Below are positions 1 through 23,626 of a stretch of 35,682 bases of DNA, piece after piece. Both the position numbers and the translations under genes were made by a program. The notes beneath the pieces are model-generated. The model was given only the letters and a program-made list of their open reading frames with translations. It was not told the DNA's origin and did no database searches. Source of the DNA: Nemertoderma westbladi (Eukaryota > Animalia > Xenacoelomorpha); NCBI GenBank assembly GCA_032718475.1, contig JAUCBJ010008803.1, positions 1 to 35,682 on the forward strand, written 5' to 3'. Every line of letters begins with the position of its first letter. Positions within the stretch are counted from its first letter, which is position 1.

Positions 1-3000
1 CTCCTTGACCAGGATGATTCTCTATTTAGTTTTATTGTCTGTTCTCCTTGACCAGGATGATTCTCTATTTAGTTTTATTGTCTGTTCTCCTTGACCAGGA
101 TGATTCTCTATTTAGTTTTATTGTCTGTTCTCCTTGACCAGGATGATTCTCTATTTAGTTTTATTGTCTGTTCTCCTTGACCAGGATGATTCTCTATTTA
201 GTTTTATTGTCTGTTCTCCTTGACCAGGATGATTCTCTATTTAGTTTTATTGTCTGTTCTCCTTGACCAGGATGCTTCTCTATTTAGTTTTATTTTCTGT
301 TTTCCTTGGCCAGGATGATTCTCTATTTAGTTTTATTGTCTGTTCTCAGGGCCAGGATGATTCTCTATTTAGTTTTATTGTCTGTTCTCAGGGCCAGGAT
401 GATTCTCTATTTAGTTTTATTGTCTGTTTTCCTTGGCCAGGATGATTCTCTATTTAGTTTTATTGTCTGTTCTCAGGGCCAGGATGATTCTCTATTTAGT
501 TTTATTGTCTGTTCTCCTTTACCAGGAAGATTCTCTATTTAGTTTTATTGTCTGTTCTCCTTGACCAGGATGATTCTCTATTTAGTTTTATTGTCTGTTC
601 TCCTTGACCAGGATGATTCTCTATTTAGTTTTATTGTCTGTTCTCAGGGCCAGGATGATTCTCTATTTAGTTTTATTGTCTGTTCTCAGGGCCAGGATGA
701 TTCTCTATTTAGTTTTATTGTCTGTTCTCAGGGCCAGGATGATTCTCTATTTAGTTTTATTGTCTGTTCTCCTTGACCAGGATGATTCTCTATTTAGTTT
801 TATTGTCTGTTCTCCTTGACCAGGATGATTCTCTATTTAGTTTTATTGTCTGTTCTCCTTGACCAGGATGATTCTCTATTTAGTTTTATTGTCTGTTCTC
901 CTTGGCCAGGATGATTCTCTATTTAGTTTTATTGTCTGTTCTCCTTGACCAGGATGATTCTCTATTTAGTTTTATTGTCTGTTCTCAGGGCCAGGATGAT
1001 TCTCTATTTAGTTTTATTGTCTGTTCTCCTTGACCAGGATGATTCTCTATTTAGTTTTATTGTCTGTTCTCCTTGGCCAGGATGATTCTCTATTTAGTTT
1101 TATTGTCTGTTCTCCTTGACCAGGATGATTCTCTATTTAGTTTTATTGTCTGTTCTCAGGGCCAGGATGATTCTCTATTTAGTTTTATTGTCTGTTCTCC
1201 TTGACCAGGATGATTCTCTATTTAGTTTGATTGTCAGTTCTCAGGACCAGGATGATTCTCTATTTAGTTTTATTGTCTGTTCTCCTTGACCAGGATGATT
1301 CTCTATTTAGTTTTATTGTCTGTTCTCAGGGCCAGGATGATTCTCTATTTAGTTTTATTGTCTGTTCTCCTTGACCAGGATGATTCTCTATTTAGTTTTA
1401 TTGTCTGTTCTCCTTGACCAGGATGATTCTCTATTTAGTTTTATTGTCTGTTCTCCTTGACCAGGATGATTCTCTATTTAGTTTTATTGTCTGTTCTCCT
1501 TGACCAGGATGATTCTCTATTTAGTTTTATTGTCTGTTCTCCTTGACCAGGATGATTCTCTATTTAGTTTTATTGTCTGTTCTCCTTGACCAGGATGATT
1601 CTCTATTTAGTTTTATTGTCTGTACTCCTTGACCAGGATGATTCTCTATTTAGTTTTATTGTCTGTTCTCCTTTACCAGGATGATTCTCTATTTAGTTTT
1701 GTTGTCTGTTCTCCTTGACCAGGATGATTCTCTATTTAGTTTTATTGTCTGTTCTCCTTGACCAGGATGATTCTCTATTTAGTTTTATTGTCTGTTCTCA
1801 GGGCCAGGATGATTCTCTATTTCGTTTTATTGTCTGTTCTCCTTGGCCAGGATGATTCTCTATTTAGTTTTATTGTCTGTTCTCCTTGACCAGAATGATT
1901 CTCTATTTAGTTTTATTGTCTGTTCTCCTTGACCAGGATGATTCTCTATTTAGTTTTATTGTCTGTTCTCCTTGGCCAGGATGATTCTCTATTTAGTTTT
2001 ATTGTCTGTTCTCCTTGACCAGGATGATTCTCTATTTAGTTTTATTGTCTGTTCTCCTTGACCAGGATGATTCTCTATTTAGTTTTATTGTCTGTTCTCC
2101 TTGACCAGGATGATTCTCTATTTAGTTTTATTGTCTGTTCTCCTTGACCAGGATGATTCTCTATTTAGTTTTATTGTCTGTTCTCCTTGACCAGGATGAT
2201 TCTCTATTTAGTTTTATTGTCTGTTCTCCTTGACCAGGATGATTCTCTATTTAGTTTTATTGTCTGTTCTCCTTGACCAGGATGATTCTCTATTTAGTTT
2301 TATTGTCTGTTCTCCTTGACCAGGATGATTCTCTATTTAGTTTTATTGTCTGTTCTCCTTTACCAGGATGATTCTCTATTTAGTTTTATTGTCTGTTCTC
2401 AGGACCAGGATGATTCTCTATTTAGTTTTATTGTCTGTTCTCAGGGCCAGGATGATTCTCTATTTAGTTTTATTGTCTGTTCTCCTTGGCCAGGATGATT
2501 CTCTATTTAGTTTTATTGTCTGTTCTCCTTGACCAGGATGATTCTCTATTTAGTTTTATTGTCTGTTCTCCTTGACCAGGATGATTCTCTATTTAGTTTT
2601 ATTGTCTGTTCTCCTTGACCAGGATGATTCTCTATTTAGTTTTATTGTCTGTTCTCCTTGACCAGGATGATTCTCTATTTAGTTTTATTGTCTGTTCTCC
2701 TTGACCAGGATGATTCTCTATTTAGTTTTATTGTCTGTTCTCCTTGACCAGGATGATTCTCTATTTAGTTTTATTGTCTGTTCTCCTTGACCAGGATGAT
2801 TCTCTATTTAGTTTTATTGTCTGTTCTCCTTGACCAGGATGATTCTCTATTTAGTTTTATTGTCTGTTCTCCTTGACCAGGATGATTCTCTATTTAGTTT
2901 TATTGTCTGTTCTCCTTGACCAGGATGATTCTCTATTTAGTTTTATTGTCTGTTCTCCTTGACCAGGATGATTCTCTATTTAGTTTTATTGTCTGTTCTC

Positions 3001-6000
3001 CTTGACCAGGATGATTCTCTATTTAGTTTTATTGTCTGTTCTCCTTGACCAGGATGATTCTCTATTTAGTTTTATTGTCTGTTCTCCTTGACCAGGATGC
3101 TTCTCTATTTAGTTTTATTGTCTGTTTTCCTTGGCCAGGATGATTCTCTATTTAGTTTTATTGTCTGTTCTCAGGGCCAGGATGATTCTCTATTTAGTTT
3201 TATTGTCTGTTCTCAGGGCCAGGATGATTCTCTATTTAGTTTTATTGTCTGTTTTCCTTGGCCAGGATGATTCTCTATTTAGTTTTATTGTCTGTTCTCA
3301 GGGCCAGGATGATTCTCTATTTAGTTTTATTGTCTGTTCTCCTTGGCCAGGATGATTCTCTATTTAGTTTTATTGTCTGTTCTCCTTGGCCAGGAGGATT
3401 CTCTATTTAGTTTTATTGTCTGTTCTCAGGGCCAGGATGATTCTCTATTTAGTTTTATTGTCTGTTCTCCTTGACCAGGATGATTCTCTATTTAGTTTTA
3501 TTGTCTGTTCTCCTTGACCAGGATGATTCTCTATTTAGTTTTATTGTCTGTTCTCAGGGCCAGGATGATTCTCTATTTAGTTTTATTGTCTGTTCTCCTT
3601 GACCAGGCCAGGATGATTCTCTATTTAGTTTTATTGTCTGTTCTCAGGACCAGGATGATTCTCTATTTAGTTTTATTGTCTGTTCTCCTTGACCAGGATG
3701 ATTCTCTATTTAGTTTTATTGTCTGTTCTCAGGACCAGGATGATTCTCTATTTAGTTTTATTGTCTGTTCTCCTTGACCAGGATGATTCTCTATTTAGTT
3801 TTATTGTCTGTTCTCCTTGACCAGGATGATTCTCTATTTAGTTTTATTGTCTGTTCTCCTTGACCAGGATGATTCTCTATTTAGTTTTATTGTCTGTTCT
3901 CCTTGACCAGGAAGATTCTCTATTTAGTTTTATTGTCTGTTCTCCTTGACCAGGATGATTCTCTATTTAGTTTTATTGTCTGTTCTCCTTGACCAGGATG
4001 ATTCTCTATTTAGTTTTATTGTCTGTTCTCAGGGCCAGGATGATTCTCTATTTAGTTTTATTGTCTGTTCTCCTTGACCAGGATGATTCTCTATTTAGTT
4101 TTATTGTCTGTTCTCCTTTACCAGGATGATTCTCTATTTAGTTTTATTGTCTGTTCTCCTTGGCCAGGATGATTCTCTATTTAGTTTTATTGTCTGTTCT
4201 CAGGACCAGGATGATTCTCTATTTAGTTTTATTGTCTGTTCTCCTTGACCAGGATGATTCTCTATTTAGTTTGATTGTCTGTTCTCCTTTACCAGGATGA
4301 TTCTCTATTTAGTTTTATTGTCTGTTCTCCTTTACCAGGATGATTCTCTATTTAGTTTTATTGTCTGTTCTCAGGACCAGGATGATTCTCTATTTAGTTT
4401 TATTGTCTGTTCTCCTTTACCAGGATGATTCTCTATTTAGTTTTATTGTCTGTTCTCCTTTACCAGGATGATTCTCTATTTAGTTTTATTGTCTGTTCTC
4501 CTTGACCAGGATGATTCTCTATTTAGTTTGATTGTCTGTTCTCCTTTACCAGGATGATTCTCTATTTAGTTTTATTGTCTGTTCTCAGGACCAGGATGAT
4601 TCTCTATTTAGTTTTATTGTCTGTTCTCCTTTACCAGGATGATTCTCTATTTAGTTTTATTGTTTGTTCTCAGGACCAGGATGATTCTCTATTTAGTTTT
4701 ATTGTCTGTTCTCCTTTACCAGGATGATTCTCTATTTAGTTTTATTGTCTGTTCTCAGGGCCAGGATGATTCTCAATTTAGTTTTATTGTCTGTTCTCCT
4801 TGGCCAGGATGATTCTCTATTTAGTTTTATTGTCTGTTCTCCTTGACCAGGATGATTCTCTATTTAGTTTTATTGTCTGTTCTCCTTGACCAGGATGATT
4901 CTCTATTTAGTTTTATTGTCTGTTCTCAGGGCCAGGATGATTCTCTATTTAGTTGTATTGTCTGTTCTCCTTTACCAGGATGATTCTCTATTTAGTTTTA
5001 TTGTCTGTTCTCCTTGACCAGGATGATTCTCTATTTAGTTTTATTGTCTGTTCTCCTTGACCAGGATGATTCTCTATTTAGTTTTATTGTCTGTTCTCCT
5101 TTACCAGGATGATTCTCTATTTAGTTTTATTGTCTGTTCTCAGGGCCAGGATGATTCTCTATTTAGTTTTATTGTCTGTTCTCCTTGACCAGGATGATTC
5201 TCTATTTAGTTTTATTGTCTGTTCTCCTTGACCAGGATGATTCTCTATTTAGTTTTATTGTCTGTTCTCCTTGACCAGGATGATTCTCTATTTAGTTTTA
5301 TTGTCTGTTCTCCTTGACCAGGATGATTCTCTATTTAGTTTTATTGTCTGTTCTCCTTGACCAGGATGATTCTCTATTTAGTTTTATTGTCTGTTCTCCT
5401 TGACCAGGAAGATTCTCTATTTAGTTTTATTGTCTTTTCTCAGGGCCAGGATGATTCTCTATTTAGTTTTATTGTCTGTTCTCCTTGACCAGGATGATTC
5501 TCTATTTAGTTTTATTGTCTGTTCTCCTTGACCAGGATGATTCTCTATTTAGTTTTATTGTCTGTTCTCAGGACCAGGATGATTCTCTATTTAGTTTTAT
5601 TGTCTGTTCTCCTTGACCAGGATGATTCTCTATTTAGTTTTATTGTCTGTTCTCAGGGCCAGGATGATTCTCTATTTAGTTTTATTGTCTGTTCTCCTTT
5701 ACCAGGATGATTCTCTATTTAGTTTTATTGTCTGTTCTCCTTGACCAGGATGATTCTCTATTTAGTTTTATTGTCTGTTCTCCTTGACCAGGATGATTCT
5801 CTATTTAGTTTTATTGTCTTTTCTCAGGGCCAGGATGATTCTCTATTTAGTTTTATTGTCTGTTCTCCTTGACCAGGATGATTCTCTATTTAGTTTTATT
5901 GTCTGTTCTCCTTGACCAGGATGATTCTCTATTTAGTTTTATTGTCTGTTCTCAGGACCAGGATGATTCTCTATTTAGTTTTATTGTCTGTTCTCCTTGA

Positions 6001-9000
6001 CCAGGATGATTCTCTATTTAGTTTTATTGTCTGTTCTCAGGGCCAGGATGATTCTCTATTTAGTTTTATTGTCTGTTCTCCTTTACCAGGATGATTCTCT
6101 ATTTAGTTTTATTGTCTGTTCTCCTTGACCAGGATGATTCTCTATTTAGTTTTATTGTCTGTTCTCCTTGACCAGGATGATTCTCTATTTAGTTTTATTG
6201 TCTGTTCTCCTTGACCAGGATGATTCTCTATTTAGTTTTATTGTCTGTTCTCCTTGACCAGGATGATTCTCTATCTAGTTTTATTGTCTGTTCTCCTTGA
6301 CCAGGATGATTCTCTATTTAGTTTTATTGTCTGTTCTCCTTGACCAGGATGATTCTCTATTTAGTTTTATTGTCTGTTCTCCTTGACCAGGATGATTCTC
6401 TATTTAGTTTTATTGTCTGTTCTCCTTGACCAGGATGATTCTCTATTTAGTTTTATTGTCTGTTCTCCTTGACCAGGATGATTCTCTATTTAGTTTTATT
6501 GTCTGTTCTCCTTGACCAGGATGATTCTCTATTTAGTTTTATTGTCTGTTCTCCTTGACCAGGATGCTTCTCTATTTAGTTTTATTGTCTGTTCTCCTTG
6601 GCCAGGATGATTCTCTATTTAGTTTTATTGTCTGTTCTCAGGGCCAGGATGATTCTCTATTTAGTTTTATTGTCTGTTCTCAGGGCCAGGATGATTCTCT
6701 ATTTAGTTTTATTGTCTGTTTTCCTTGGCCAGGATGATTCTCTATTTAGTTTTATTGTCTGTTCTCGGGGCCAGGATGATTCTCTATTTAGTTTTATTGT
6801 CTGTTCTCCTTGGCCAGGATGATTCTCTATTTAGTTTTATTGTCTGTTCTCCTTGGCCAGGATGATTCTCTATTTAGTTTTATTGTCTGTTCTCAGGGCC
6901 AGGATGATTCTCTATTTAGTTTTATTGTCTGTTCTCCTTGACCAGGATGATTCTCTATTTAGTTTTATTGTCTGTTCTCCTTGACCAGGATGATTCTCTA
7001 TTTAGTTTTATTGTCTGTTCTCAGGGCCAGGATGATTCTCTATTTAGTTTTATTGTCTGTTCTCCTTGACCAGGCCAGGATGATTCTCTATTTAGTTTTA
7101 TTGTCTGTTCTCCTTGACCAGGATGATTCTCTATTTAGTTTTATTGTCTGTTCTCAGGACCAGGATGATTCTCTATTTAGTTTTATTGTCTGTTCTCCTT
7201 GACCAGGATGATTCTCTATTTAGTTTTATTGTCTGTTCTCCTTGACCAGGATGATTCTCTATTTAGTTTTATTGTCTGTTCTCAGGACCAGGATGATTCT
7301 CTATTTAGTTTTATTGTCTGTTCTCCTTGACCAGGATGATTCTCTATTTAGTTTTATTGTCTGTTCTCCTTGACCAGGATGATTCTCTATTTAGTTTTAT
7401 TGTCTGTTCTCCTTGACCAGGATGATTCTCTATTTAGTTTTATTGTCTGTTCTCAGGACCAGGATGATTTTCTATTTAGTTTTATTGTCTGTTCTCCTTG
7501 ACCAGGATGATTCTCTATTTAGTTTGATTGTCTGTTCTCCTTTACCAGGATGATTCTCTATTTAGTTTTATTGTCTGTTCTCCTTTACCAGGATGATTCT
7601 CTATTTAGTTTCATTGTCTGTTCTCAGGACCAGGATGATTCTCTATTTAGTTTTATTGTCTGTTCTCCTTTACCAGGATGATTCTCTATTTAGTTTTATT
7701 GTCTGTTCTCCTTTACCAGGATGATTCTCTATTTAGTTTTATTGTCTGTTCTCCTTGACCAGGATGATTCTCTATTTAGTTTGATTGTCTGTTCTCCTTT
7801 ACCAGGATGATTCTCTATTTAGTTTTATTGTCTGTTCTCCTTTACCAGGATGATTCTCTATTTAGTTTTATTGTCTGTTCTCCTTTACCAGGATGATTCT
7901 CTATTTAGTTTTATTGTCTGTTCTCAGGACCAGGATGATTCTCTATTTAGTTTTATTGTCTGTTCTCCTTTACCAGGATGATTCTCTATTTAGTTTTATT
8001 GTCTGTTCTCCTTTACCAGGATGATTCTCTATTTAGTTTTATTGTCTGTTCTCAGGACCAGGATGATTCTCTATTTAGTTTTATTGTCTGTTCTCCTTTA
8101 CCAGGATGATTCTCTATTTAGTTTTATTGTCTGTTCTCCTTTACCAGGATGATTCTCTATTTAGTTTTATTGTCTGTTCTCAGGACCAGGATGATTCTCT
8201 ATTTAGTTTTATTGTCTGTTCTCCTTTACCAGGATGATTCTCTATTTAGTTTTATTGTCTGTTCTCCTTTACCAGGATGATTCTCTATTTAGTTTTATTG
8301 TCTGTTCTCAGGACCAGGATGATTCTCTATTTAGTTTTATTGTCTGTTCTCCTTTACCAGGATGATTCTCTATTTAGTTTTATTGTTTGTTCTCAGGACC
8401 AGGATGATTCTCTATTTAGTTTTATTGTCTGTTCTCCTTTACCAGGATGATTCTCTATTTAGTTTTATTGTCTGTTCTCAGGGCCAGGATGATTCTCAAT
8501 TTAGTTTTATTGTCTGTTCTCCTTGGCCAGGATGATTCTCTATTTAGTTTTATTGTCTGTTCTCCTTGACCAGGATGATTCTCTATTTAGTTTTATTGTC
8601 TGTTCTCCTTGACCAGGATGATTCTCTATTTAGTTTTATTGTCTGTTCTCAGGGCCAGGATGATTCTCTATTTAGTTTTATTGTCTGTTCTCCTTTACCA
8701 GGATGATTCTCTATTTAGTTTTATTGTCTGTTCTCCTTGACCAGGATGATTCTCTATTTAGTTTTATTGTCTGTTCTCCTTGACCAGGATGATTCTCTAT
8801 TTAGTTTTATTGTCTGTTCTCCTTTACCAGGATGATTCTCTATTTAGTTTTATTGTCTGTTCTCAGGGCCAGGATGATTCTCTATTTAGTTTTATTATCT
8901 GTTCTCCTTGACCAGGATGAGTCTCTATTTAGTTTTATTGTCTGTTCTCCTTGACCAGGATGATTCTCTATTTAGTTTTATTGTCTGTTCTCCTTGACCA

Positions 9001-12000
9001 GGATGATTCTCTATTTAGTTTTATTGTCTGTTCTCCTTGACCAGGATGATTCTCTATTTAGTTTTATTGTCTGTTCTCCTTGACCAGGAAGATTCTCTAT
9101 TTAGTTTTATTGTCTTTTCTCAGGGCCAGGATGATTCTCTATTTAGTTTTATTGTCTGTTCTCCTTGACCAGGATGATTCTCTATTTAGTTTTATTGTCT
9201 GTTCTCCTTGACCAGGATGATTCTCTATTTAGTTTTATTGTCTGTTCTCAGGACCAGGATGATTCTCTATTTAGTTTTATTGTCTGTTCTCCTTGACCAG
9301 GATGATTCTCTATTTAGTTTTATTGTCTGTTCTCAGGGCCAGGATGATTCTCTATTTAGTTTTATTGTCTGTTCTCCTTTACCAGGATGATTCTCTATTT
9401 AGTTTTATTGTCTGTTCTGCTTGACCAGGATGATTCTCTATTTAGTTTTATTGTCTGTTCTCCTTGACCAGGATGATTCTCTATTTAGTTTTATTGTCTG
9501 TTCTCCTTGACCAGGATGATTCTCTATTTAGTTTTATTGTCTGTTCTCCTTGACCAGGATGATTCTCTATCTAGTTTTATTGTCTGTTCTCCTTGACCAG
9601 GATGATTCTCTATTTAGTTTTATTGTCTGTTCTCCTTGACCAGGATGATTCTCTATTTAGTTTTATTGTCTGTTCTCCTTGACCAGGATGATTCTCTATT
9701 TAGTTTTATTGTCTGTTCTCCTTGACCAGGATGATTCTCTATTTAGTTTTATTGTCTGTTCTCCTTGACCAGGAAGATTCTCTATTTAGTTTTATTGTCT
9801 GTTCTCAGGGCCAGGATGATTCTCTATTTAGTTTTATTGTCTGTTCTCCTTGACCAGGATGATTCTCTATTTAGTTTTATTATCTGTTCTCCTTGGCCAG
9901 GATGATTCTCTATTTAGTTTTATTGTCTGTTCTCAGGGCCAGGATGATTCTCTATTTAGTTTTATTGTCTGTTCTCCTTGGCCAGGATGATTCTCTATTT
10001 AGTTTTATTGTCTGTTCTCCTTGGCCAGGATGATTCTCTATTTAGTTTTATTGTCTGTTCTCAGGGCCAGGATAATTCTCTATTTAGTTTTATTGTCTGT
10101 TCTCCTTGACCAGGATGATTCTCTATTTAGTTTTATTGTCTGTTCTCCTTGACCAGGATGATTCTCTATTTAGTTTTATTGTCTGTTCTCAGGGCCAGGA
10201 TGATTCTCTATTTAGTTTTATTGTCTGTTCTCCTTGACCAGGATGATTCTCTATTTAGTTTTATTGTCTGTTCTCAGGACCAGGATGATTCTCTATTTAA
10301 TTTTATTGTCTGTTCTCCTTGACCAGGATGATTCTCTATTTAGTTTTATTGTCTGTTCTCAGGACCAGGATGATTCTCTATTTAGTTTTATTGTCTGTTC
10401 TCCTTGACCAGGATGATTCTCTATTTAGTTTTATTGTCTGTTCTCCTTGACCAGGATGATTCTCTATTTAGTTTTATTGTCTGTTCTCCTTGACCAGGAT
10501 GATTCTCTATTTAGTTTTATTGTCTGTTCTCCTTGACCAGAAAGATTCTCTATTTAGTTTTATTGTCTGTTCTCCTTGACCAGGATGATTCTCTATTTAG
10601 TTTTATTGTCTGTTCTCCTTGACCAGAATGATTCTCTATTTAGTTTTATTGTCTGTTCTCAGGGCCAGGATGATTCTCTATTTAGTTTTATTGTCTGTTC
10701 TCCTTGACCAGGATGATTCTCTATTTAGTTTTATTGTCTGTTCTCCTTTACCAGGATGATTCTCTATTTAGTTTTATTGTCTGTTCTCCTTGGCCAGGAT
10801 GATTCTCTATTTAGTTTTATTGTCTGTTCTCAGGACCAGGATGATTCTCTATTTAGTTTTATTGTCTGTTCTCCTTGACCAGGATGATTCTCTATTTAGT
10901 TTGATTGTCTGTTCTCCTTTACCAGGATGATTCTCTATTTAGTTTTATTGTCTGTTCTCCTTTACCAGGATGATTCTCTATTTAGTTTTATTGTCTGTTC
11001 TCAGGACCAGGATGATTCTCTATTTAGTTTTATTGTCTGTTCTCCTTTACCAGGATGATTCTCTATTTAGTTTTATTGTCTGTTCTCAGGGCCAGGATGA
11101 TTCTCTATTTAGTTTTATTGTCTGTTCTCCTTGACCAGGATGATTCTCTATTTAGTTTTATTGTCTGTTCTCCTTGACCAGGATGATTCTCTATTTAGTT
11201 TTATTGTCTGTTCTCCTTGACCAGGATGATTCTCTATTTAGTTTTATTGTCTGTTCTCCTTGACCAGGATGATTCTCTATTTAGTTTTATTGTCTGTTCT
11301 CCTTGACCAGGATGATTCTCTATTTAGTTTTATTGTCTGTTCTCCTTGACCAGGAAGATTCTCTATTTAGTTTTATTGTCTTTTCTCAGGGCCAGGATGA
11401 TTCTCTATTTAGTTTTATTGTCTGTTCTCCTTGACCAGGATGATTCTCTATTTAGTTTTATTGTCTGTTCTCCTTGACCAGGATGATTCTCTATTTAGTT
11501 TTATTGTCTGTTCTCAGGGCCAGGATGATTCTCTATTTAGTTTTATTGTCTGTTCTCCTTTACCAGGATGATTCTCTATTTAGTTTTATTGTCTGTTCTC
11601 CTTGACCAGGATGATTCTCTATTTAGTTTTATTGTCTGTTCTCCTTGACCAGGATGATTCTCTATTTAGTTTTATTGTCTGTTCTCCTTGACCAGGATGA
11701 TTCTCTATTTAGTTTTATTGTCTGTTCTCCTTGACCAGGATGATTCTCTATCTAGTTTTATTGTCTGTTCTCCTTGACCAGGATGATTCTCTATTTAGTT
11801 TTATTGTCTGTTCTCCTTGACCAGGATGATTCTCTATTTAGTTTTATTGTCTGTTCTCCTTGACCAGGATGATTCTCTATTTAGTTTTATTGTCTGTTCT
11901 CCTTGACCAGGATGATTCTCTATTTAGTTTTATTGTCTGTTCTCCTTGACCAGGATGATTCTCTATTTAGTTTTATTGTCTGTTCTCCTTGACCAGGATG

Positions 12001-14941
12001 ATTCTCTATTTAGTTTTATTGTCTGTTCTCCTTGACCAGGATGATTCTCTATTTAGTTTTATTGTCTGTTCTCCTTGACCAGGATGCTTCTCTATTTAGT
12101 TTTATTGTCTGTTTTCCTTGGCCAGGATGATTCTCTATTTAGTTTTATTGTCTGTTCTCAGGGCCAGGATGATTCTCTATTTAGTTTTATTGTCTGTTCT
12201 CAGGGCCAGGATGATTCTCTATTTAGTTTTATTGTCTGTTTTCCTTGGCCAGGATGATTCTCTATTTAGTTTTATTGTCTGTTCTCAGGGCCAGGATGAT
12301 TCTCTATTTAGTTTTATTGTATGATCTCCTTGGCCAGGATGATTCTCTATTTAGTTTTATTGTCTGTTCTCCTTGGCCAGGATGATTCTCTATTTAGTTT
12401 TATTGTCTGTTCTCAGGGCCAGGATGATTCTCTATTTAGTTTTATTGTCTGTTCTCCTTGACCAGGATGATTCTCTATTTAGTTTTATTGTCTGTTCTCC
12501 TTGACCAGGATGATTCTCTATTTAGTTTTATTGTCTGTTCTCAGGGCCAGGATGATTCTCTATTTAGTTTTATTGTCTGTTCTCCTTGACCAGGCCAGGA
12601 TGATTCTCTATTTAGTTTTATTGTCTGTTCTCAGGACCAGGATGATTCTCTATTTAGTTTTATTGTCTGTTCTCCTTGACCAGGATGATTCTCTATTTAG
12701 TTTTATTGTCTGTTCTCAGGACCAGGATGATTCTCTATTTAGTTTTATTGTCTGTTCTCCTTGACCAGGATGATTCTCTATTTAGTTTTATTGTCTGTTC
12801 TCCTTGACCAGGATGATTCTCTATTTAGTTTTATTGTCTGTTCTCAGGACCAGGATGATTCTCTATTTAGTTTTATTGTCTGTTCTCAGGGCCAGGATGA
12901 TTCTCTATTTAGTTTTATTGTCTGTTCTCAGGACCAGGATGATTCTCTATTTAGTTTTATTGTCTGTTCTCCTTGACCAGGATGATTCTCTATTTAGTTT
13001 TATTGTCTGTTCTCCTTTACCAGGATGATTCTCTATTTAGTTTTATTGTCTGTTCTCAGGACCAGGATGATTCTCTATTTAGTTTTATTGTCTGCTCTCA
13101 GGGCCAGGATGATTCTCTATTTAGTTTTATTGTCTGTTCTCAGGACCAGGATGATTCTCTATTTAGTTTTATTGTCTGTTCTCCTTTACCAGGATGATTC
13201 TCTATTTAGTTTGATTGTCTGTTCTCCTTTACCAGGATGATTCTCTATTTAGTTTTATTGTCTGTTCTCCTTTACCAGGATGATTCTCTATTTAGTTTTA
13301 TTGTCTGTTCTCAGGACCAGGATGATTCTCTATTTAGTTTTATTGTCTGTTCTCTTTGACCAGGATGATTCTCTATTTAGTTTTATTGTCTGTTCTCAGG
13401 ACCAGGATGATTCTCTATTTAGTTTTATTGTCTGTTCTCCTTTACCAGGATGATTCTCTATTTAGTTTTATTGTCTGTTCTCAGGACCAGGATGATTCTC
13501 TATTTAGTTTTATTGTCTGTTCTCAGGGCCAGGATGATTCTCAATTTAGTTTTATTGTCTGTTCTCCTTGGCCAGGATGATTCTCTATTTAGTTTTATTG
13601 TCTGTTCTCCTTGACCAGGATGATTCTCTATTTAGTTTTATTGTCTGTTCTCCTTGACCAGGATGATTCTCTATTTAGTTTTATTGTCTGTTCTCAGGAC
13701 CAGGATGATTCTCTATTTAGTTTTATTGTCTGTTCTCCTTTACCAGGATGATTCTCTATTTAGTTTTATTGTCTGTTCTCCTTTACCAGGATGATTCTCT
13801 ATTTAGTTTTATTGTCTGTTCTCAGGACCAGGATGATTCTCTATTTAGTTTTATTGTCTGTTCTCCTTTACCAGGATGATTCTCTATTTAGTTTTATTGT
13901 CTGTTCTCCTTTACCAGGATGATTCTCTATTTAGTTTTATTGTCTGTTCTCAGGACCAGGATGATTCTCTATTTAGTTTTATTGTCTGTTCTCCTTTACC
14001 AGGATGATTCTCTATTTAGTTTTATTGTCTGTTCTCAGGACCAGGATGATTCTCTATTTAGTTTTATTGTCTGTTCTCCTTTACCAGGATGATTCTCTAT
14101 TTAGTTTTATTGTCTGTTCTCAGGACCAGGATGATTCTCTATTTAGTTTTATTGTCTGTTCTCAGGGCCAGGATGATTCTCAATTTAGTTTTATTGTCTG
14201 TTCTCCTTGGCCAGGATGATTCTCTATTTAGTTTTATTGTCTGTTCTCCTTGACCAGGATGATTCTCTATTTAGTTTTATTGTCTGTTCTCCTTGACCAG
14301 GATGATTCTCTATTTAGTTTTATTGTCTGTTCTCAGGGCCAGGATGATTCTCTATTTAGTTTTATTGTCTGTTCTCCTTTACCAGGATGATTCTCTATTT
14401 AGTTTTATTGTCTGTTCTCCTTGACCAGGATGATTCTCTATTTAGTTTTATTGTCTGTTCTCCTTGACCAGGATGATTCTCTATTTAGTTTTATTGTCTG
14501 TTCTCCTTGGCCAGGATGATTCTCTATTTAGTTTTATTGTCTGTTCTCCTTGACCAGGATGATTCTCTATTTAGTTTTATTGTCTGTTCTCCTTTACCAG
14601 GATGATTCTCTATTTAGTTTTATTGTCTGTTCTCAGGGCCAGGATGATTCTCTATTTAGTTTTATTGTCTGTTCTCCTTGACCAGGATGATTCTCTATTT
14701 AGTTTTATTGTCTGTTCTCCTTGACCAGGATGATTCTCTATTTAGTTTTATTGTCTGTTCTCAGGGCCAGGATGATTCTCTATTTAGTTTTATTGTCTGT
14801 TCTCCTTGACCAGGATGATTCTCTATTTAGTTTTATTGTCTGTTCTCCTTGACCAGGATGATTCTCTAATTAGTTTTATTGTCTGTTCTCCTTTACCAGG
14901 ATGATTCTCTATTTAGTTTTATTGTCTGTTCTCAGGGCCAG
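1..14941 (+). repeat. Intronic 42/43-bp tandem array (~350 units, runs off the left edge); unit equals the 3' splice site region of the downstream exon
   Basis: Consensus CTCCTTGACCAGGATGATTCTCTATTTAGTTTTATTGTCTGTT (43 bp). Variants differ almost only at one spot: CTCCTTGACC, CTCCTTTACC, CTCCTTGGCC (43 bp) and CTCAGGGCC, CTCAGGACC (42 bp). The last unit reads TGTTCTCAG|GGCCAGGACGAC directly into coding sequence. Confidence 0.98.
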
Positions 14942-15139
14942 GACGACACCGGTAGATTCAGTTGGAACCGTGGCGCCGTTCTCATATTTCTCCCCGGGAT
15001 CCATGAGATCGAGTTTATGAATGAGTTGCTAACTGATATCAGATCCATCTACAAACTCTGGGTACTCCGATTGCATTCTTCCTTGCCGATAGACGAACAA
15101 CGTAAAGTGTTCCGTAAGCCGGATATTGGAAAGAGAAAG
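14936..15139 (+). CDS. TDRD9: Internal exon A of TDRD9/spindle-E DExH-box RNA helicase (RecA2 domain, motif IV region)
   Basis: Translates GQDDTGRFSWNRGAVLIFLPGIHEIEFMNELL...LRLHSSLPIDEQRKVFRKPDIGKRK, with the LIFLPG and LHSS motifs of DEAH/RHA helicases. Acceptor TTCTCAG| at 14935, donor AAG|GTTTGT at 15140, 204 nt, phase 0-0. In-frame alternative acceptors at 14899 and 14941 make the start slightly uncertain. Confidence 0.9.
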
Positions 15140-15365
15140 GTTTGTTATATAGATTGCATGTAGAACATGGATAATTAAACATATCGGTACGGTGCAGAAA
15201 CAACCCCCTTGAACTACGTCCCAGAGGATACTGGTAATCATTTAGATAATTTTTTTAGATTTCCGGTCCATAAATGAATATCTAAATGGAATTATCCAGT
15301 CAGACACCTACACTGGCCTAGTTAGATTTTGATTAGTTGAGTTCGATTATCACAAGTTACGGAAG

Positions 15366-16437
15366 ATGCCATCGCTAGCTGATAAATTCTCGGAAGTACA
15401 TGCCCTCACAGTCACTTCAATAAGGAATGTTAAATCGAAGAAAAGTATGTCTGTCGAGGACGAGAAAAATCTGTTAGAATCAATCGAAGAACTCAACACT
15501 TTTGGCATCCCTTAGCGATCTCGCTGAATCGAGAGAATAAACTATTGAGAGTAAAAACACTGTAATACAGGTTAAAGATGAACTCTTGGGACTAACACGG
15601 CAGGGAAAAGAGGATTTAGGACGCGGATCGTGAACCTGGGATTACTGGATGTTCTACTCGAGGTAGACAGGATAAGCAGGCTGGGAGGACTGCTTCACGC
15701 AACTTAACCCAACAGCGACGAGGTTGTTCCGGTTCCGCAAACTGGGAGGACTGCTTCACGCAACTTAACCCAACAGCGACGAGGTTGTTCCGGTTCCGCA
15801 AACTGGGAGGACTGCTTCACGCAACTTAACCCAACAGCGACGAGGTTGTTCCGGTTCCGCAAACTCAAGGGAACAGTCGGTGGACTCCCTCCTAGCTCCA
15901 AGATATCCTCCTACCAGTACCCATGCAGGCTACCATGCAGATCATCGAGAGGATGCAGAAACTCCGGCATTGCAGGATGGTCTCAGTAAGGGAAACGAGT
16001 GGAAAACGGTTCCGGAACGGCGGAAGCCACAGCGCTCAACTGCAACGGTTGTTATAAGAATAGGAACTGGCCTTGTTGTCGCCCCAAGGACAGATCGCGT
16101 ACAACTGGCGCATATTTACGTTGGCCGCTTCGCAAAAAATGTCACATCAAATGACGTTAAAGATTATCTCACAACGGAAAAACTTCCGTTTACTGATGTC
16201 ATCCGCATCAATAGCGAACACGACTCTGAATCACATGCTTTCCATATCACCTGCCTGCAAGATGATCGTGAGAAACTGATAGATCCCAACAACTTGGAAG
16301 ATGGGTTACTCATCCAGAACTACCTTCTATCTGAACAGGAACGTACAGCTCTAGGGTTGAAACCAAGATTCCGGAATGGATCAGACTTGGGAAACAGACC
16401 AAACCCTACCAGACCCAACATCCAAGATAATAATTGA
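15366..16437 (+). pseudogene. LINE ORF1 (disrupted N-terminal part; open C-terminal 15880-16437 with RRM-like domain)
   Basis: ATG at 15366 opens MPSLADKFSEVHAL...EDEKNLLESIEELN (coiled-coil-like), then the frame breaks. C-terminal HIYVGRFAKNVTSNDVKDYL...AFHIT...KLIDP resembles RRM-like LINE ORF1 domains. It lies directly upstream of the APE domain. Confidence 0.6.
15681..15863 (+). repeat. Three perfect 61-bp tandem copies within the LINE ORF1 region
   Basis: CTGGGAGGACTGCTTCACGCAACTTAACCCAACAGCGACGAGGTTGTTCCGGTTCCGCAAA at 15681, 15742 and 15803. Confidence 0.95.
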
Positions 16438-18541
16438 CAACAAAATAATTTAGCTTCCGAGCTACAAACAACTAAGGACACTATTATCACACTGTGGAAC
16501 ATCGAAAGCTTTAACTATGTTCGAGAAAATTTAACAGACGATGAACTCTATATTAACAGCGATATCCTACTTTTTAATGAAACATTTTTAACCGCTTCGA
16601 CTGCTCAAAATCAGGGCTACTACACCTATGTGGAACCAGCACAACAATCACAGAATGGCAGGCCATCGGGTGGATTGATGACCCTAATACGACCACATCT
16701 AGACCCTTCTCTCATTGCAAAAACAAATAATTATATTATAAAAATAATTATATACGACTTTGTGGTATATTCTTTTATTTTACTTTACACCTGAAACAAC
16801 TGTCGCCGAAATAGTGCTCACTATCTCGGAAGCACTAACTCACACCGAACAAGGTAATATTATAATCATTGCAGGGGACTTTAATTGCAGGATAGACAAA
16901 GGAACCCTGGGCGACCGTCTTACATAAAGCATGTCGGAAGTGGGATTCGTGAGAGTCGACTACTACGAAAAATCGTCAAAGACTTACATATCGCCGCAAG
17001 GAGAAAGTGCAATAGATCTATTTTTCGTAAAATACCCAAAGTCGTTCCCAGAAACGTTAACCTCGGCATTTGTAGTAAACCACCCTATACGAAAACACCA
17101 ACGGGTTACATTGACAATGAATTCTAAAGTTACTCCACCATGTGAGATTGCCCCGAGAAGCCAGCCACACAGCAGGAATCTAAACCTTGAAGTTCTTCAA
17201 CATCATCCGTCTCTTGCGTCTATTGAACAGCTTGGAGCTCAAAGTGATGTTAATCTTCCAACAAATAATCTAAATGTTGCTCTACTAGAATCTACAATCC
17301 AGCGCTACAACGTTAAACAACATGGTAAGAAATGGTTTGACTCTGAGTGCCAGTCTATGAAACTCGAAGTTTTGGAAGCGATGAAACATCGAAATTACTC
17401 CAAGGGGAATCTTCTGCATTTTGGACCCTCCGACGGCGGTATAAACGACTTCTCAAAAGAAAAAGACGGGCATACGAAGAATCGCAGTAGTTAGACCAAA
17501 TTAATGACTCTGAAATTGATCCCTGGACTCTATTTAGCGTTAAAAAAGGCAATAAACTCTACTCGCACTTCCAGACTCTTCTTGGGGAGGAGAATAAACC
17601 TTTAGGCTGCCCAGATGCCCCGGAAATCAGTGAAGGAGAACGACTAACTACGGAATGGTATAATAATCCAATTGAAAATGAAGAAATAATTGAGACGGTT
17701 TACCATGCTTCCACCAAAATAGCATCCGGACTCGATGGGGTCTTCTATGAACACTTAAAGCAGGCTGTTCCGTTCATACTAGTTTATCTTACTATTTAAT
17801 CTCTGTTTGAATACCGGCAAGATTCCCGAAGCTTGGCGAACTAGTGTAATCAAGGTTATTTACAAGGGAAAAGGAAAAATTACTGATCCAGACAACTACC
17901 GGGGAATTGCGTTAATTTCGGTAATGTTAAAAGTTCTCACGTCCATCATAAGTAAACGCGTTCGATCGTTTCTCCATAAAGAAATCCCACTGGAACAATT
18001 CGGCTTTCAAGCTGGAAAATCGAGAATACAAGCGATAAACAAACTTTTAATCGACATCAGCGACACGATACACTCAGACAACCATAGGGAACGAGTAGTC
18101 TATGCTCTATTTATAGATTTTAGAAAAGCTTTCGACATGGTCAGCCGTTCCAAGCTCCTTTGCAAAATTTACAAGCTAGGAATTAAAGGGAAAACGTTTG
18201 TCTTGATTAAGAAATCTGTTTAATAATTCTATTAGAATTTTCGACGGTTTGCGTTTATCAGAACCCATTGGACAACTACGAGGAATATTACAGGGAGATT
18301 GTTTATCGCCTCTTCTTTTCATCCTCTTTATAGCTGACCTAGCTACGGCGCTAAGAAATGTCTGCCACCTGATCAAATTTATATTCTTTGCCGACGATTT
18401 GGTAATCTATTCGCGGAATAGGGAAACTATTCAACTACATTGTATGCTTAAACACTCTCCACCAATGGTGGAGATCAATGGTTGAATTAAATGGTATGGA
18501 GTTAAATATTATTAAAACGAAAATAGTCAAGTTTAGAAAAG
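16438..18541 (+). pseudogene. Host LINE ORF2, 5' part (AP endonuclease + reverse transcriptase), frameshifted
   Basis: APE and RT motifs in the correct order over ORF pieces 16438-16794, 16931-17494, 17807-18223 and 18249-18485. Ends at KTKIVKFRK where the nested insertion begins. Confidence 0.9.
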
Positions 18542-19362
18542 TTCTACCTGTCAGACAGAGGTCGAACTGTAGTCATTAGCAAATCGCAGTCTACTGTACA
18601 AGAGATTACCTGTGGTGTACCGCAAGGTAGTATATTAGGTCCTCTGCTTTTTGTATGCTATGTAAATGATATGATAAGTAGTATAGATCCCGATTTTAAA
18701 CTCATTTTATATGCCGACGACAGTGCTCTTATTTTCTCTCATAAAGATCCTATCCATATTTCCCAAAAGTTAAGTGCAGTTCTAGAATCCTGTAATGAGT
18801 GGTTGGTTGATAATAAGCTATCCATTCACTACGGTAAGACTGAAAGTATTTTGTTTGGTTCCAAAAGAAAGTTAAAGAAGGTAACTAAGTTTGAAGTCAC
18901 TAGTAATGGACATAAGATTGAAAATAAAAAGGAAGTTAAATATTTAGGCGCCACATTGGATAACTGCTTATCAGGAGAAAGTACAGTGAAAAATATTTTC
19001 TCGAAAGTTAACAGTAGGCTTAGGTTTCTATACAGAAATGAAAATAGTTTAAACACCGACTCCCGCAAGTTACTTTGCTCTTCTTTAATACAGTGTCACA
19101 TGGACTATGCATGCCCTTCTTGGTATGAAGGCTTAACCAAACAGCTTAAATGTAAATTACAAGTAGCTCAGAATAAAGTAGTACGATTTATTAAAGACTA
19201 CAAACCTAGGCACCACCTAACTCCAGATGACTTTTCTGAATCTGGACTACTTAACTTAGATAGTAGAGTTAAGCAGCTACGACTTAACCATGTGCATAAA
19301 GTGTATAATGGTAAATGTCCCAATTACTAAAACAAAAATTCAACAGAGTTCGCGATACACAC
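18542..19362 (+). mobile_element. Nested fragment of a second LINE family (CR1/L2-group-like RT C-terminal half)
   Basis: A second, non-identical set of RT motifs: ITCGVPQGSILGPLLFVCYVND, LYADDS, NKLSIHYGKT, KYLGATLD, LIQCHMDYACPSW, KLQVAQNKVVRFI. These repeat motifs already present in the host at about 18280-18410. Confidence 0.88.
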
Positions 19363-20288
<926 letters not shown>

Positions 20289-20320
20289 AAGTAGTTTGCT
20301 TGCTGACATCCGATAGAAAT

Positions 20321-20815
20321 AAGATAAATAAAACGATATGTTAGCCAGTTTTCATTTATTATCTATACCTATAAAAATCAAATTCTGTCTGTCTCTCTCT
20401 GTGTTCGAACTCCTCCAAAAACGGGCGGAGGGATTGTGCTGGGACTTGACATGTGTGTATAACTTTAACCAGCGGTCGTTATAGGCCACTTTTCGAAAAG
20501 TATAATTCACTTTCGGTACCGGTACTGGGTACCGGTACGTCAGTAGGCCTATGCCGGTAGCGGGAAATACAGGGTATCATGCCTCGGGTATTGCCTGCTA
20601 GTATTATATAAAAAATGGTTTAATTATGTTTATTAGATATTACAGATAAATAAATAATATATATATACAGTAAAAATAGTAAAAATACAGTAAAAAAGGT
20701 TTTTTACTGTATATATATATTATTTATTTATCTGTAATATCTAATAAACATAATTAAACCATTTTTATATAATATAATAAATGAAAACTGGCTAACATAT
20801 CGTTTTATTTATCTT
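20321..20815. repeat. AT-rich foldback inverted repeat (arms about 115 bp), left arm interrupted by a Helitron
   Basis: 20321-20361 plus 20602-20676 is the reverse complement of 20701-20815. The centre is TACAGTAAAAAA-GG-TTTTTTACTGTA at 20686-20711. Confidence 0.93.
20362..20601 (+). mobile_element. Non-autonomous Helitron (240 bp)
   Basis: Starts TCTATACCTATAAAA and ends CTAG, inserted between A and T with no target duplication. There is an imperfect GC-rich hairpin just before the 3' end. The other palindrome arm preserves the empty site CATTTATTA|TATTATATA. Confidence 0.85.
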
Positions 20816-21332
20816 TATTAATCTACAATACATTGTCAATTTCATATATTTTTAACATTGATTGATTTTTATCATGAATCTGAATATTATATTTATACTT
20901 TTAACATTTCCGACGGTTCGGTCTAATTTTAACAGGTATATAATTCACAAGTTACAGGGCGATCCATAGTCTTGGACACCCTGTGTATGTATGTGTTATA
21001 TTATTGTGCTATTATATTACTTATAATTAATTAATATAGTTTACCCCGATCTGGGGTGTTTATTCTAAAAAAAATGTAATTAAGATTGTATTATTATAGT
21101 CACAGTATTGAAACCATTTTTTTAAACTACCAGTACCTGTATTAGCATAATATAATTGTTACACTTCCAAGTTTCAGTTTAATGGCATTCCAATTCAAAC
21201 TGTTAGAAATACATCGCAAATATGAATTTGTAGTTATGGTTTTCATATCAGTATAGATAGTCCTGACCACTAAACTTATCCTAAAGAAACTGTTTATCTC
21301 GGTTGGTTTACGGCTATTTATCGTCTCTCTAG

Positions 21333-21532
21333 GTTATTATCTCCAGCAACGTGGCCGAGAGTTCCATCACAGTTGCCGACATCGTTTACGTTATCGATTT
21401 CTGTTTAACTAAAGAGATGAGTTGCGACCCCGAGACCAACTTCCAGTGTCTCAAACTGTCCTGGGCTAGTAAAGCGAACGCCACCCAGCGGAAGGGTAGG
21501 GCTGGTCGGGTCGCATGTGGCAAGGTTTATAG
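21333..21532 (+). CDS. TDRD9: Internal exon B of TDRD9/spindle-E (helicase motifs V and VI)
   Basis: Translates VIISSNVAESSITVADIVYVIDFCLTKEMSCDPETNFQCLKLSWASKANATQRKGRAGRVACGKVYR. AESSxTV, VIDFCLT and LSWASK are characteristic of TDRD9/Spn-E rather than other DHX proteins. Acceptor TCTCTCTAG| at 21332, donor TAG|GTAGGT at 21533, 200 nt, phase 0-2. Confidence 0.95.
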
Positions 21533-22777
21533 GTAGGTGTGTACGCCATCTAGCGGAAGGGTAGGGCTGGTTGGGTCGCATGTGGCAAGGTTTATAGGTA
21601 GGTGTGTACGCCATCTAGCGGAAGGGTAGGGCTGGTTGGGTCGCATGTGGCAAGGTTTATAGGTAGGTGTGTACGCCATCTAGCGGAAGGGTAGGGCTGG
21701 TCGGGTCGCATGTAGCAAGGTTTATAGGTAGGTGTGTACGCCATCTAGCGGAAGGGTAGGGCTGGTCGGGTCGCATGTGGCAAGGTTTATAGGTCGGTGT
21801 GTACACCATCTAGCGGTAGCAAGGTTTATAGGTAGGTGTGTACGCCATCTAGCGGTAGCAAGGTTTATAGGTAGGTGTGTACGCCATCTAGCGGTAGCAA
21901 GGTTTATAGGTAGGTGTGTACGCCATCTAGCGGTAGCAAGGTTTCTAGGTAGGTGTGTACGCCATCTAGCGGTAGCAAGGTTTCTAGGTAGGTGTGTACG
22001 CCATCTAGCGGTAGCAAGGTTTCTAGGTAGGTGTGTACGCCATCTAGCGGTGGAAAGGTTTATAGGTAGGTGTGTACGCCATCCAGCGGAAGGGTAGGGC
22101 TGGTCGGGTCGCATGTGGCAAGGTTTATAGGTAGGTGTGTTCGCCATCTAGCGGAAGGGTAGGGCTGGTAGGGTCGCATATGGCAAGGTTTATAGGTGGG
22201 TGTGTATGTACGCCATCTAGCGGTAGCAAAGTTTATAGGTAGGTGTCTACGCCATCTAGCGGTAGCAAGGTTTATAGGTAGGTGTATACGCCATCTAGCG
22301 GTAGCAAGGTGTAAAGGTAGGTGTGTACACCATCTAGCGGTAGCAAGGTTTATAGGTATGTGTGTACGCCATCTAGCGGTAGCAAGGTTTATAGGTAGGT
22401 GTGTACGCCATCTAGCGGTAGCAAGGTGTAAACGTAGGTGTGTACACCATCTAGCGGTAGCAAGGTTTATAGGTAGGTGTGTACGCCATCTAGCGGTAGC
22501 AATGTTTATAGGTAGGTGTGTACGCCATCTAGCGGTAGCAAGGTTTATAGGTGGGTGTGTGTGTACGCCATCTAGCGGTAGCAAGGTTTATAGGTATGTG
22601 TGTACGCCATCTAGCGGTAGCAAGGTTTATAGGTGGGTGTGTGTGTACGCCATCTAGCGGTAGCAAGGTTTATAGGTAGGTGTGTACGCCATCTGGCGGT
22701 AGCAAGGTTTATAGGTAGGTGTGTACGCCATCTGGCGGTAGCAAGGTTTATAGGTAGGTGTGTACGCCATCTAGCGG
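21478..22777 (+). repeat. 65-bp / 39-bp tandem array derived from the 3' end of exon B and its splice donor (~28 units)
   Basis: The 65-bp unit is the last 55 nt of the exon plus GTAGGTGTGT (five units from 21478, two more at about 22076-22210). The 39-bp unit ACGCCATCTAGCGGTAGCAAGGTTTATAGGTAGGTGTGT is an internal 26-bp deletion derivative. Confidence 0.97.
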
Positions 22778-22934
22778 ACTCTACGTTGCCTTTCGTACGT
22801 CAGAATCCGCTAACATAAACAAAAAACTATTTCATTGAAAATTTACTTCATTATTTTTGTGACGTGTTGTTTCAGGGGTTTGGGGTGTGGTGTGAAATCC
22901 GCGACAGTTTTACCACATAGGTTTATGATTTCAG

Positions 22935-23044
22935 GTTAGTGCCGCGACAGTTTTACCACGGAGTTTTATCAGAGTTTGCTACCCCAGAGATGCAGCGAGC
23001 TGCTTTGTCCAACGTTGTCCTGAAGACAAAGGAACTGGATATTG
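22935..23044 (+). CDS. TDRD9: Internal exon C of TDRD9/spindle-E (end of RecA2 into winged-helix/HA2 region)
   Basis: Not in the ORF track. AG from exon B plus G completes Arg, then LVPRQFYHGVLSEFATPEMQRAALSNVVLKTKELDI(G), matching the YRL...PEMxR..L...LKxKxLDxG pattern of the family. Acceptor ATTTCAG| at 22934, donor G|GTGAGT at 23045, 110 nt, phase 2-1. Confidence 0.92.
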
Positions 23045-23545
23045 GTGAGTTACGATATGTGGAGTGGTCCTAAGGGACTCGATATCGGTGAGTCTCTACA
23101 GGTACAAGCTCTCTACTGATGATAATCCACAACATGGCCTATGTCCACAGGGTCTTCAGTCCTGGTTCCCATGATCACAGTTGCTCGTGGAGCATTGTCT
23201 GATTTATGGCTCAGTAAGGTACTGGAAATACTGTGGGTGATATCGGTAGAGTTTCTTCATGCAAAACCTTTTCTGAGTTTATTTTTAACACATTCATACG
23301 CATTGCATCCACTTCGTCAGCCATTGCATTAAAAATATTTTCCTCTTATAGAAGGTCATTCTCATCGACAATCTGGATGTGCTCCAGTAAAGACTCTTTT
23401 AATTTTATGTAAGCCTCCTCAGCGCCAGCTTTAAGAGAATTAACTCAGAAAGTGAATGGGCTGTCTGCTCTTCAACTGCTTGATTTGTTAAAATATTAAT
23501 TAATTTATAGCAGTATTTCATTTTCCTTGTAACTTGACATTTAAA

Positions 23546-23626
23546 TGCACCATGGCGGCGTTGCACCATGGCGGCGTTGCACCATGGCGGCGTTGCACCA
23601 TGGCGGCGTTGCACCATGGCGGCGTT
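23546..23626. repeat. Five 16-bp GC-rich tandem copies
   Basis: GCACCATGGCGGCGTT at 23547, 23563, 23579, 23595 and 23611. Confidence 0.95.

Follow-up and report, generated by a model that had tools for sequence, protein, structure and literature searches.

A border-spanning acceptor repeat in TDRD9 of Nemertoderma westbladi and the predicted use of its last copy

In the genome of Nemertoderma westbladi, an exon of the helicase gene TDRD9/spindle-E is preceded by a long array in which the end of its own intron is repeated hundreds of times. This locus raises the questions of which of these acceptors would join the exon, how the spliceosome might pass all the others, and how such an array was formed. 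The whole stretch of DNA analyzed (hereafter the window) has a length of 35,682 nt. The preferred reading, to which we assign a probability of roughly 0.7, is that the array is a border-spanning repeat (“mirage”) of the TDRD9 exon, likely produced by one 42-bp duplication and subsequent unequal exchange, and that splicing is predicted to take place at the last copy, the sole one located before the real exon and its donor.

The TDRD9 copy and its acceptor array

Three exons of the gene were located, all on the + strand. Exon A (14936–15139, 204 nt, followed by a donor GT at 15140) is open and encodes part of the RecA2 helicase domain, with a weak Helicase_C match (E 0.014) and 117 tblastn matches. 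Exon B (21333–21532, 200 nt, donor GT at 21533) contains the helicase motifs V–VI and shows a stronger Pfam match to Helicase_C (E 7.9e-07); its best PDB match is Spindle-E (9nhs_G, E 2.7e-21), the next one being DHX36 (E 2.5e-15). Exon C (22935–23044) comprises 110 nt and its donor GT is found at 23045. Among the 120 protein matches listed, the top ones are named TDRD9/spindle-E or are unnamed RNA helicases, with identities of 60–78%. Protein, PDB, and tblastn matches agree on the gene that the original prediction had named. No further TDRD9 exons were detected in the window by tblastn of 120 proteins, and a homologue search with exon A returned 0 of 10 candidates.

The three exons join in frame to give 171 codons with neither stop nor frameshift, and their six splice sites are canonical with matching phases. 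The copy therefore looks intact, as far as can be judged from the DNA. The alternative is a young pseudogene or partial duplicate, in which the array would be free of splicing constraint. Upstream and downstream exons are indeed absent from the window, the surroundings are laden with repeats, and at the 52 columns with at least 90% conservation the exons differ at three positions (all conservative changes) against a median of one in 104 orthologues. However, the frame and the splice sites described above are preserved throughout, and at both other duplications of the gene (see below) the coding copy has remained intact, so that a pseudogene is considered very unlikely.

A quick tree was built from the three exons and 112 other rows. 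The N. westbladi copy belongs neither to the starred Branchiostoma clade nor to any other starred clade; its group, which has no star and carries a long-branch warning, also includes a barnacle, insects, and rotifers. The CpG observed/expected ratio ranges between 0.94 and 1.03, that is, there is no depletion, and undepleted CpG fits a weakly methylated genome.

The intron end before exon A is occupied by a 42/43-bp tandem array (1–14943, + strand), each unit of which consists of the intron end and the first 8 bases of exon A. The left edge of the window cuts the array and the upstream exon with its donor lies beyond it; thus, the length of 15 kb and the number of 349 units are minima. TRF reports 349 copies with a period of 43 (span 1–14933). 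Splitting at the CCAG anchor also results in 349 units, namely 253 of 43 bp, 93 of 42 bp, and three of 48 bp, and the 346 units of 42/43 bp are within the size range of minisatellites. The 42-bp unit is the real border sequence, with approximately 34 bases of the intron before the acceptor at 14935 and 8 bases of the exon after it.

According to the original prediction, the array ends exactly at the acceptor. The array does reach the border, but its end is not exact: the last unit straddles 14935 and matches 8 bases of the exon, to 14943 (or to 14946 with one mismatch). The remaining description of the units was confirmed. The 30-mer quoted as identical to the true acceptor except for one exonic base has 47 exact copies, and its sole difference from the real junction is exon base +9. 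The acceptor AG (CTCAG), expected in about a quarter of the units, is retained in 92 of the 349 (26%). The second CAG, within the CCAG thought to be kept essentially everywhere, is present in every unit, with no double-length unit among the 349. The lack of a strong GT donor was also verified, with 0 GTRAG, 0 GTRA, and 0 AGGT on the + strand of 1–14935.

The CTCAG units are of two kinds, 54 with the real exon side and 38 with a G>A change at +2. Nearly all units without the acceptor AG carry CTT in its place, and this form accounts for approximately 257 of the 349 units. Most of the decoy AGs are the second CAG. T makes up 48% of the array, and pyrimidines together make up 66%.

Some additional features of the units were observed. 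The 42-bp unit is an open frame of 14 codons, continuous with exon A, and therefore runs of 42-bp units beside the exon would lengthen the protein in frame. A frameshift results from each 43-bp unit, and the most frequent of these units introduces an in-frame TGA. By eye, the change from AG to CTT renders the junction nearly palindromic with the next bases, which might indicate a template switch. The opposite (−) strand of 1–14935 contains 339 AATAAA and 52 donor-like GTAAAG motifs, neither of which is found on the + strand.

Choice of the acceptor

We infer that the authentic acceptor of exon A is the AG at 14934–14935 (+ strand), with phase 0 assumed. Given this phase and the donor at 15140, the AGs which are in frame and open are those ending at 14899, 14935, and 14941, and a premature stop results from 799 of the 800 upstream AGs. 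The AG at 14940–14941 (+ strand) belongs to the second CAG, placed inside exon A and kept by every unit; it is in frame and its use would remove two codons. With 14935 as the acceptor, the spacing to the conserved R-G equals that of the G of the Q-G pair in the orthologues P0005, P0055, P0057, P0063, and P0072. MAFFT gaps this variable loop differently, and the first residue of the exon is not aligned to the conserved G. From the 17 fetched loci examined, 15 show the motif and one of these 15 (L024) has a phase-0 intron at approximately this position, one codon off. In two of the fetched loci introns are seemingly located a few codons further on (by eye), and most loci have no intron there. 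The orthologue spacing and the intron position give modest support to 14935 as the real acceptor.

The rival AG is located 36 nt upstream (14898–14899, + strand). It is the only upstream AG which is both in frame and stop-free, and it would add 12 codons. Before it, at a distance of 30 nt, a CTAAT is found (14866–14870, + strand), the only match in the 14,935 bases (14.9 kb) to CTRAY, which we take to be the branch-point motif. This CTAAT is a private change of the second-last full unit, a singleton at 14853. Under a second reading, which shares the same origin of the array, the private CTAAT would be the branch point and the AG at 14899 would be used, either alone or together with 14935, so that 12 repeat-coded residues would be added to the variable helicase loop. 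A scanning model would favor 14899, where the pyrimidine share is higher (0.80 vs. 0.75 at 14935) and the AG-free zone is longer (24 vs. 17 nt), and the length of the loop varies among orthologues. On the other hand, the CTAAT was noticed post hoc in an array where 26 units bear private changes, the open frame of 14899 is an automatic consequence of the 42-bp length of the last unit, and the 12 extra residues are unlike the sequence of the orthologues at the same place. We consider such a slid acceptor unlikely and retain 14935 as the probable one.

The acceptor at 14935 can hardly be told apart from its copies. From −40 to +8, 45 decoys are identical to it, and six are identical from −65 to +8. 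With so many identical decoys, the signals of the acceptor itself cannot decide the choice. Folding gave an unpaired probability of 0.27 for the real AG, compared with 0.11–0.47 in the seven common decoy classes; it shows no mark on the real AG, and masking of the decoys by RNA structure was not supported. Only the downstream sequence differs, that is, the exon body and the donor 204 nt away.

Exon definition is an established splicing principle and, on the sequence evidence, it is most likely the selector of the last copy. Four of the 791 upstream YAGs are located within 300 nt of the donor at 15140. In the proposed mechanism, exon definition and exonic enhancers would select the AG at 14935, and the decoys of the array would have no donor in reach. 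The rare use of a decoy would nearly always yield a premature stop, leading to removal by nonsense-mediated decay (NMD). The original prediction that the last acceptor is picked through the donor at 15140 is supported in so far as the 45 identical decoys fit selection by the downstream exon and donor, whereas the use of the junction itself is only predicted.

Recursive splicing uses AG-GT ratchet points. The saw-tooth passage through the array for which the original prediction suggested looking is not supported, as 1–14935 contains no AG-GT site and none of the donor motifs listed above on the + strand.

The 45 decoys identical to the real acceptor between −40 and +8 are also transcribed before it, which makes the locus a powerful natural test of how a 3′ splice site is chosen. 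The array could gauge how far downstream exon definition alone carries the choice of an acceptor, and how much leaks to NMD.

Origin of the array and the other repeats of the window

The units of the array are highly similar. The cores of 300 of the 349 units are identical and core divergence is 0.47%, with 40 distinct unit sequences in total, 26 of them singletons. In addition, the region 5574–8783 resembles 10965–14467 in the order of its variants (score 72 vs. at most 19.6 in 40 shuffles), and rare variants are common to both copies of this 3.2-kb block. Block copies, shared rare variants, and the low divergence are together what a recent amplification through unequal exchange would leave. 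The very high identity of the units could also be expected from an assembly artifact that inflated the copy number; yet the 40 distinct units, the 26 singletons, and the imperfect block duplications with shared rare variants look long-read-resolved, and we regard an artifact as extremely improbable.

The history of the array may be outlined as follows. A short duplication across the acceptor, probably between microhomologies, would have given the first extra copy, and it would have been tolerated since the last copy rebuilt the whole exon. Recent amplification and homogenization, with copying of kb-scale blocks, would have followed by unequal exchange; here the pattern is seen and the process is deduced from it. 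The CTT variant, presumably derived by replacement of the acceptor AG, now accounts for about three quarters of the units, and drift inside the array would be the simplest explanation for its rise.

The opposite direction is also conceivable, in which a pre-existing 43-bp satellite of the CTT form was inserted at the intron end and provided a new acceptor together with the first codons of the exon. The CTT form is the majority and the left end of the array lies beyond the window, as such an origin would allow. Nevertheless, the exon bases shared with the units encode residues that align with the orthologues, and two other borders of TDRD9 have been duplicated from their own sequence; a satellite origin is hardly credible in our view.

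A selective purge of decoy AGs near the exon was not seen in the distribution of the units. The AG-keeping units show no thinning toward the exon (11–14 per 50 units, with 19/49 in the last bin; rho 0.09, p 0.09). Moreover, units with CTT still have a second acceptor rich in pyrimidines; consequently, the spread of this variant does not clearly amount to a removal of decoys.

A further alternative is that the hundreds of pyrimidine-rich acceptors bind putative factors of the U2AF/PTB type and slow splicing or feed NMD, thereby setting the dose of a piRNA-pathway helicase. The 791 YAGs with 66% pyrimidine and the 799 of 800 decoys of NMD type would suit a functional or costly array, and a repeat of ABCA7 with up to ~427 units alters splicing by its length (PMC5954066). 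In contrast, the acceptor array is very young and homogeneous, its variants show no ordered placing, a 47-bp array of comparable size close by is unlinked to any TDRD9 border, so that large arrays are common in this gene region, and published mirages splice normally (PMC3087553, PMC3902484). The probability of a functional or costly array is judged to be very low, and the array is most likely a tolerated by-product rather than a control device. If it were true that the array alters TDRD9 dose, a repeat would hypothetically be linked to a transposon-silencing pathway.

Two more borders of the gene are duplicated. The first is the donor border of exon B, where a 65/39-bp array (21478–22777, + strand) copies the last 55 bases of the exon and the donor in 28 full units (one real and 27 copies) and one partial unit. 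An identical donor 9-mer is carried by 19 of the 27 copies; splicing at any of these would take in the stop that directly follows the real donor. The exon's own unit differs at two bases from most copies. Microhomology-mediated tandem duplication leaves short homology at the unit ends (PMC13167724); the ends of the donor array match at 13 of 15 bases, a match that may be a partial unit rather than the founding microhomology. The second is found at exon C, whose acceptor and start are present twice in a decayed duplication (22870–22969, + strand; 28 nt, 89% identity, spacing 43). The duplicate is located 43–59 nt upstream, with the outer AG (22875) out of frame and the inner AG (22934) open.

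In total, three of the six borders of the TDRD9 copy in the window are duplicated, and their repeats have reached 2, 28, and at least 349 copies. Without the index array, two of the four other duplications with units of at least 40 bp cover a splice site (p ~0.006 under random placement and 0.010 without the LINE block; post hoc and with small numbers). This excess hints at a bias toward splice sites, and plain slippage does not explain three of six. In the fetched orthologue loci (14 of 80 read), TRF found only repeats of 2–2.5 copies. The borders at 2, 28, and at least 349 copies present the life cycle of a border repeat side by side in one gene.

A broader scenario may be drawn from these findings, in which short duplications form preferentially at splice sites in this lineage, one of them became the largest acceptor-side array among those compared here, selection favored the new private branch point as a mark of the array's end, by which the choice of acceptor is shifted or secured, and the length of the array tunes the output of the piRNA-pathway helicase. 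We give this chain of events little credence.

On the − strand of 21544–22777, 24 exact matches to a 13-letter consensus were observed, presumably a CTCF-like motif, one per unit of the donor array, with the exon's own copy unmatched. Shuffles give 0.02 matches, but the copies of the donor array represent one amplified event.

Other repeats are located away from the borders. The intron after exon A contains pieces of a broken non-LTR retrotransposon (LINE; 15769–20288, + strand), that is, an endonuclease and two reverse-transcriptase pieces, probably of one element nested in another. Within the LINE region a (TCTA)49 repeat is found at 19363–19558, and a perfect 61-bp triple repeat is located at 15681–15865. 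A homologue search with the LINE frame at 19560–20189 gave 0 of 122. An AT-rich, MITE-like inverted repeat was noticed by eye around 20690 (20623–20760), and the intron after exon C includes small perfect tandem repeats at 23546–23626 (16 bp, five copies) and 23861–23894 (13 bp, 2.6 copies). Rfam showed 0 matches over 14500–25600.

The 47-bp array (25250–35682, no strand assigned) exceeds 10 kb and is cut by the right edge of the window. It was not counted among the border-spanning repeats, since no TDRD9 border was detected there by tblastn and it is at none of the exon borders found. This large array, more than 10 kb in length and away from the TDRD9 borders, demonstrates that large arrays also form in the region irrespective of borders. 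It begins inside an 85-codon frame (25072–25329), possibly a transposon remnant, for which neither a Pfam match, nor a TDRD9 tblastn match, nor a usable atlas match was obtained.

Comparison with known border repeats

The original prediction presented the array as unusual in kind. This does not hold, because repeats of this kind have already been described in lancelets and in the human genes F7, IFI6, CBS, LMNB2, PDGF, and ABCA7. The term “mirage” was introduced for tandem copies of an exon–intron border in the lancelet Adh3 gene, and mirages with units of 10–160 bp are reported for Adh3, the globins BflGb6 and BflGb9, troponin C, and PGBD5 (PMC3087553). In the lancelet globins both borders are affected, with 3–6 units in BflGb6, partial loss of the splice signals, and concerted evolution (PMC3087553). 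Normal splicing is left undisturbed (PMC3087553; PMC3902484), and the cause of the bias toward splice sites is called unclear (PMC3087553).

The N. westbladi array shows, by sequence, a border-spanning unit with an authentic end unit, minisatellite size, partial retention of the signal, and concerted evolution. As in lancelets, acceptor and donor borders are affected, the splice signal is retained in many of the units though not in every one, and the inner units are homogenized while the border unit stands apart (the exon copy in N. westbladi differs at +9). The differences are the host, which is not a lancelet, and the number of units, that is, 3–6 in BflGb6 versus at least 349 in TDRD9. Furthermore, normal splicing and length instability are shown for the lancelet mirages, whereas the N. 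westbladi array is known from the sequence of one haplotype.

In humans, minisatellites span the donors of F7 IVS7 (37 bp, 5–9 copies), IFI6 (25 pseudo-sites), CBS intron 13 (15–20), LMNB2, and PDGF; the copy of the real exon is used most, and IFI6 and CBS also use the two nearest copies (PMC1557585). These genes similarly have identical splice sites repeated into the intron, and they are a close match to the 28-unit donor array at 21478–22777. Their first-transcribed donor wins by 5′–3′ scanning, while the acceptor of TDRD9 must win as the last of hundreds. The CBS 844ins68 allele is a duplication of an intron-end/exon-start junction as well, in which the distal copy is strongly favored and normal mRNA is produced (PMC2630376), but it has only two copies and involves 68 bp.

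In size, the counterpart is the VNTR in intron 18 of ABCA7, whose unit holds the real donor and which reaches up to ~427 units and 10.7 kb. Exon skipping follows its length, some splicing occurs at the nearest copies, and a premature stop results when the next copy is used (PMC5954066). Both repeats contain hundreds of copies of a unit with a real splice site; the VNTR is on the donor side and its splicing changes with length, whereas the array of N. westbladi is on the acceptor side and spans at least 14.9 kb. The length effect in ABCA7 and the use of the nearest copies in IFI6, CBS, and ABCA7 imply that a large array need not be neutral. Border repeats have also been surveyed in human duplicated genes (PMC2812944).

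In the searched part of the literature, largely papers outside subscription journals, an acceptor-side array with hundreds of units was not found. The giant satellite-filled introns of the Drosophila Y chromosome (PMC6508621, PMC11207136) are likewise long repeat-filled introns in germline genes; however, they extend over megabases instead of 15 kb, and the unit of N. westbladi derives from the gene's own border. From introns with recursive splicing the array differs by having no AG-GT. Overall, on the evidence of its sequence the N. westbladi array belongs to the described class of mirages, within which it stands out by its size and by the three duplicated borders in one gene.
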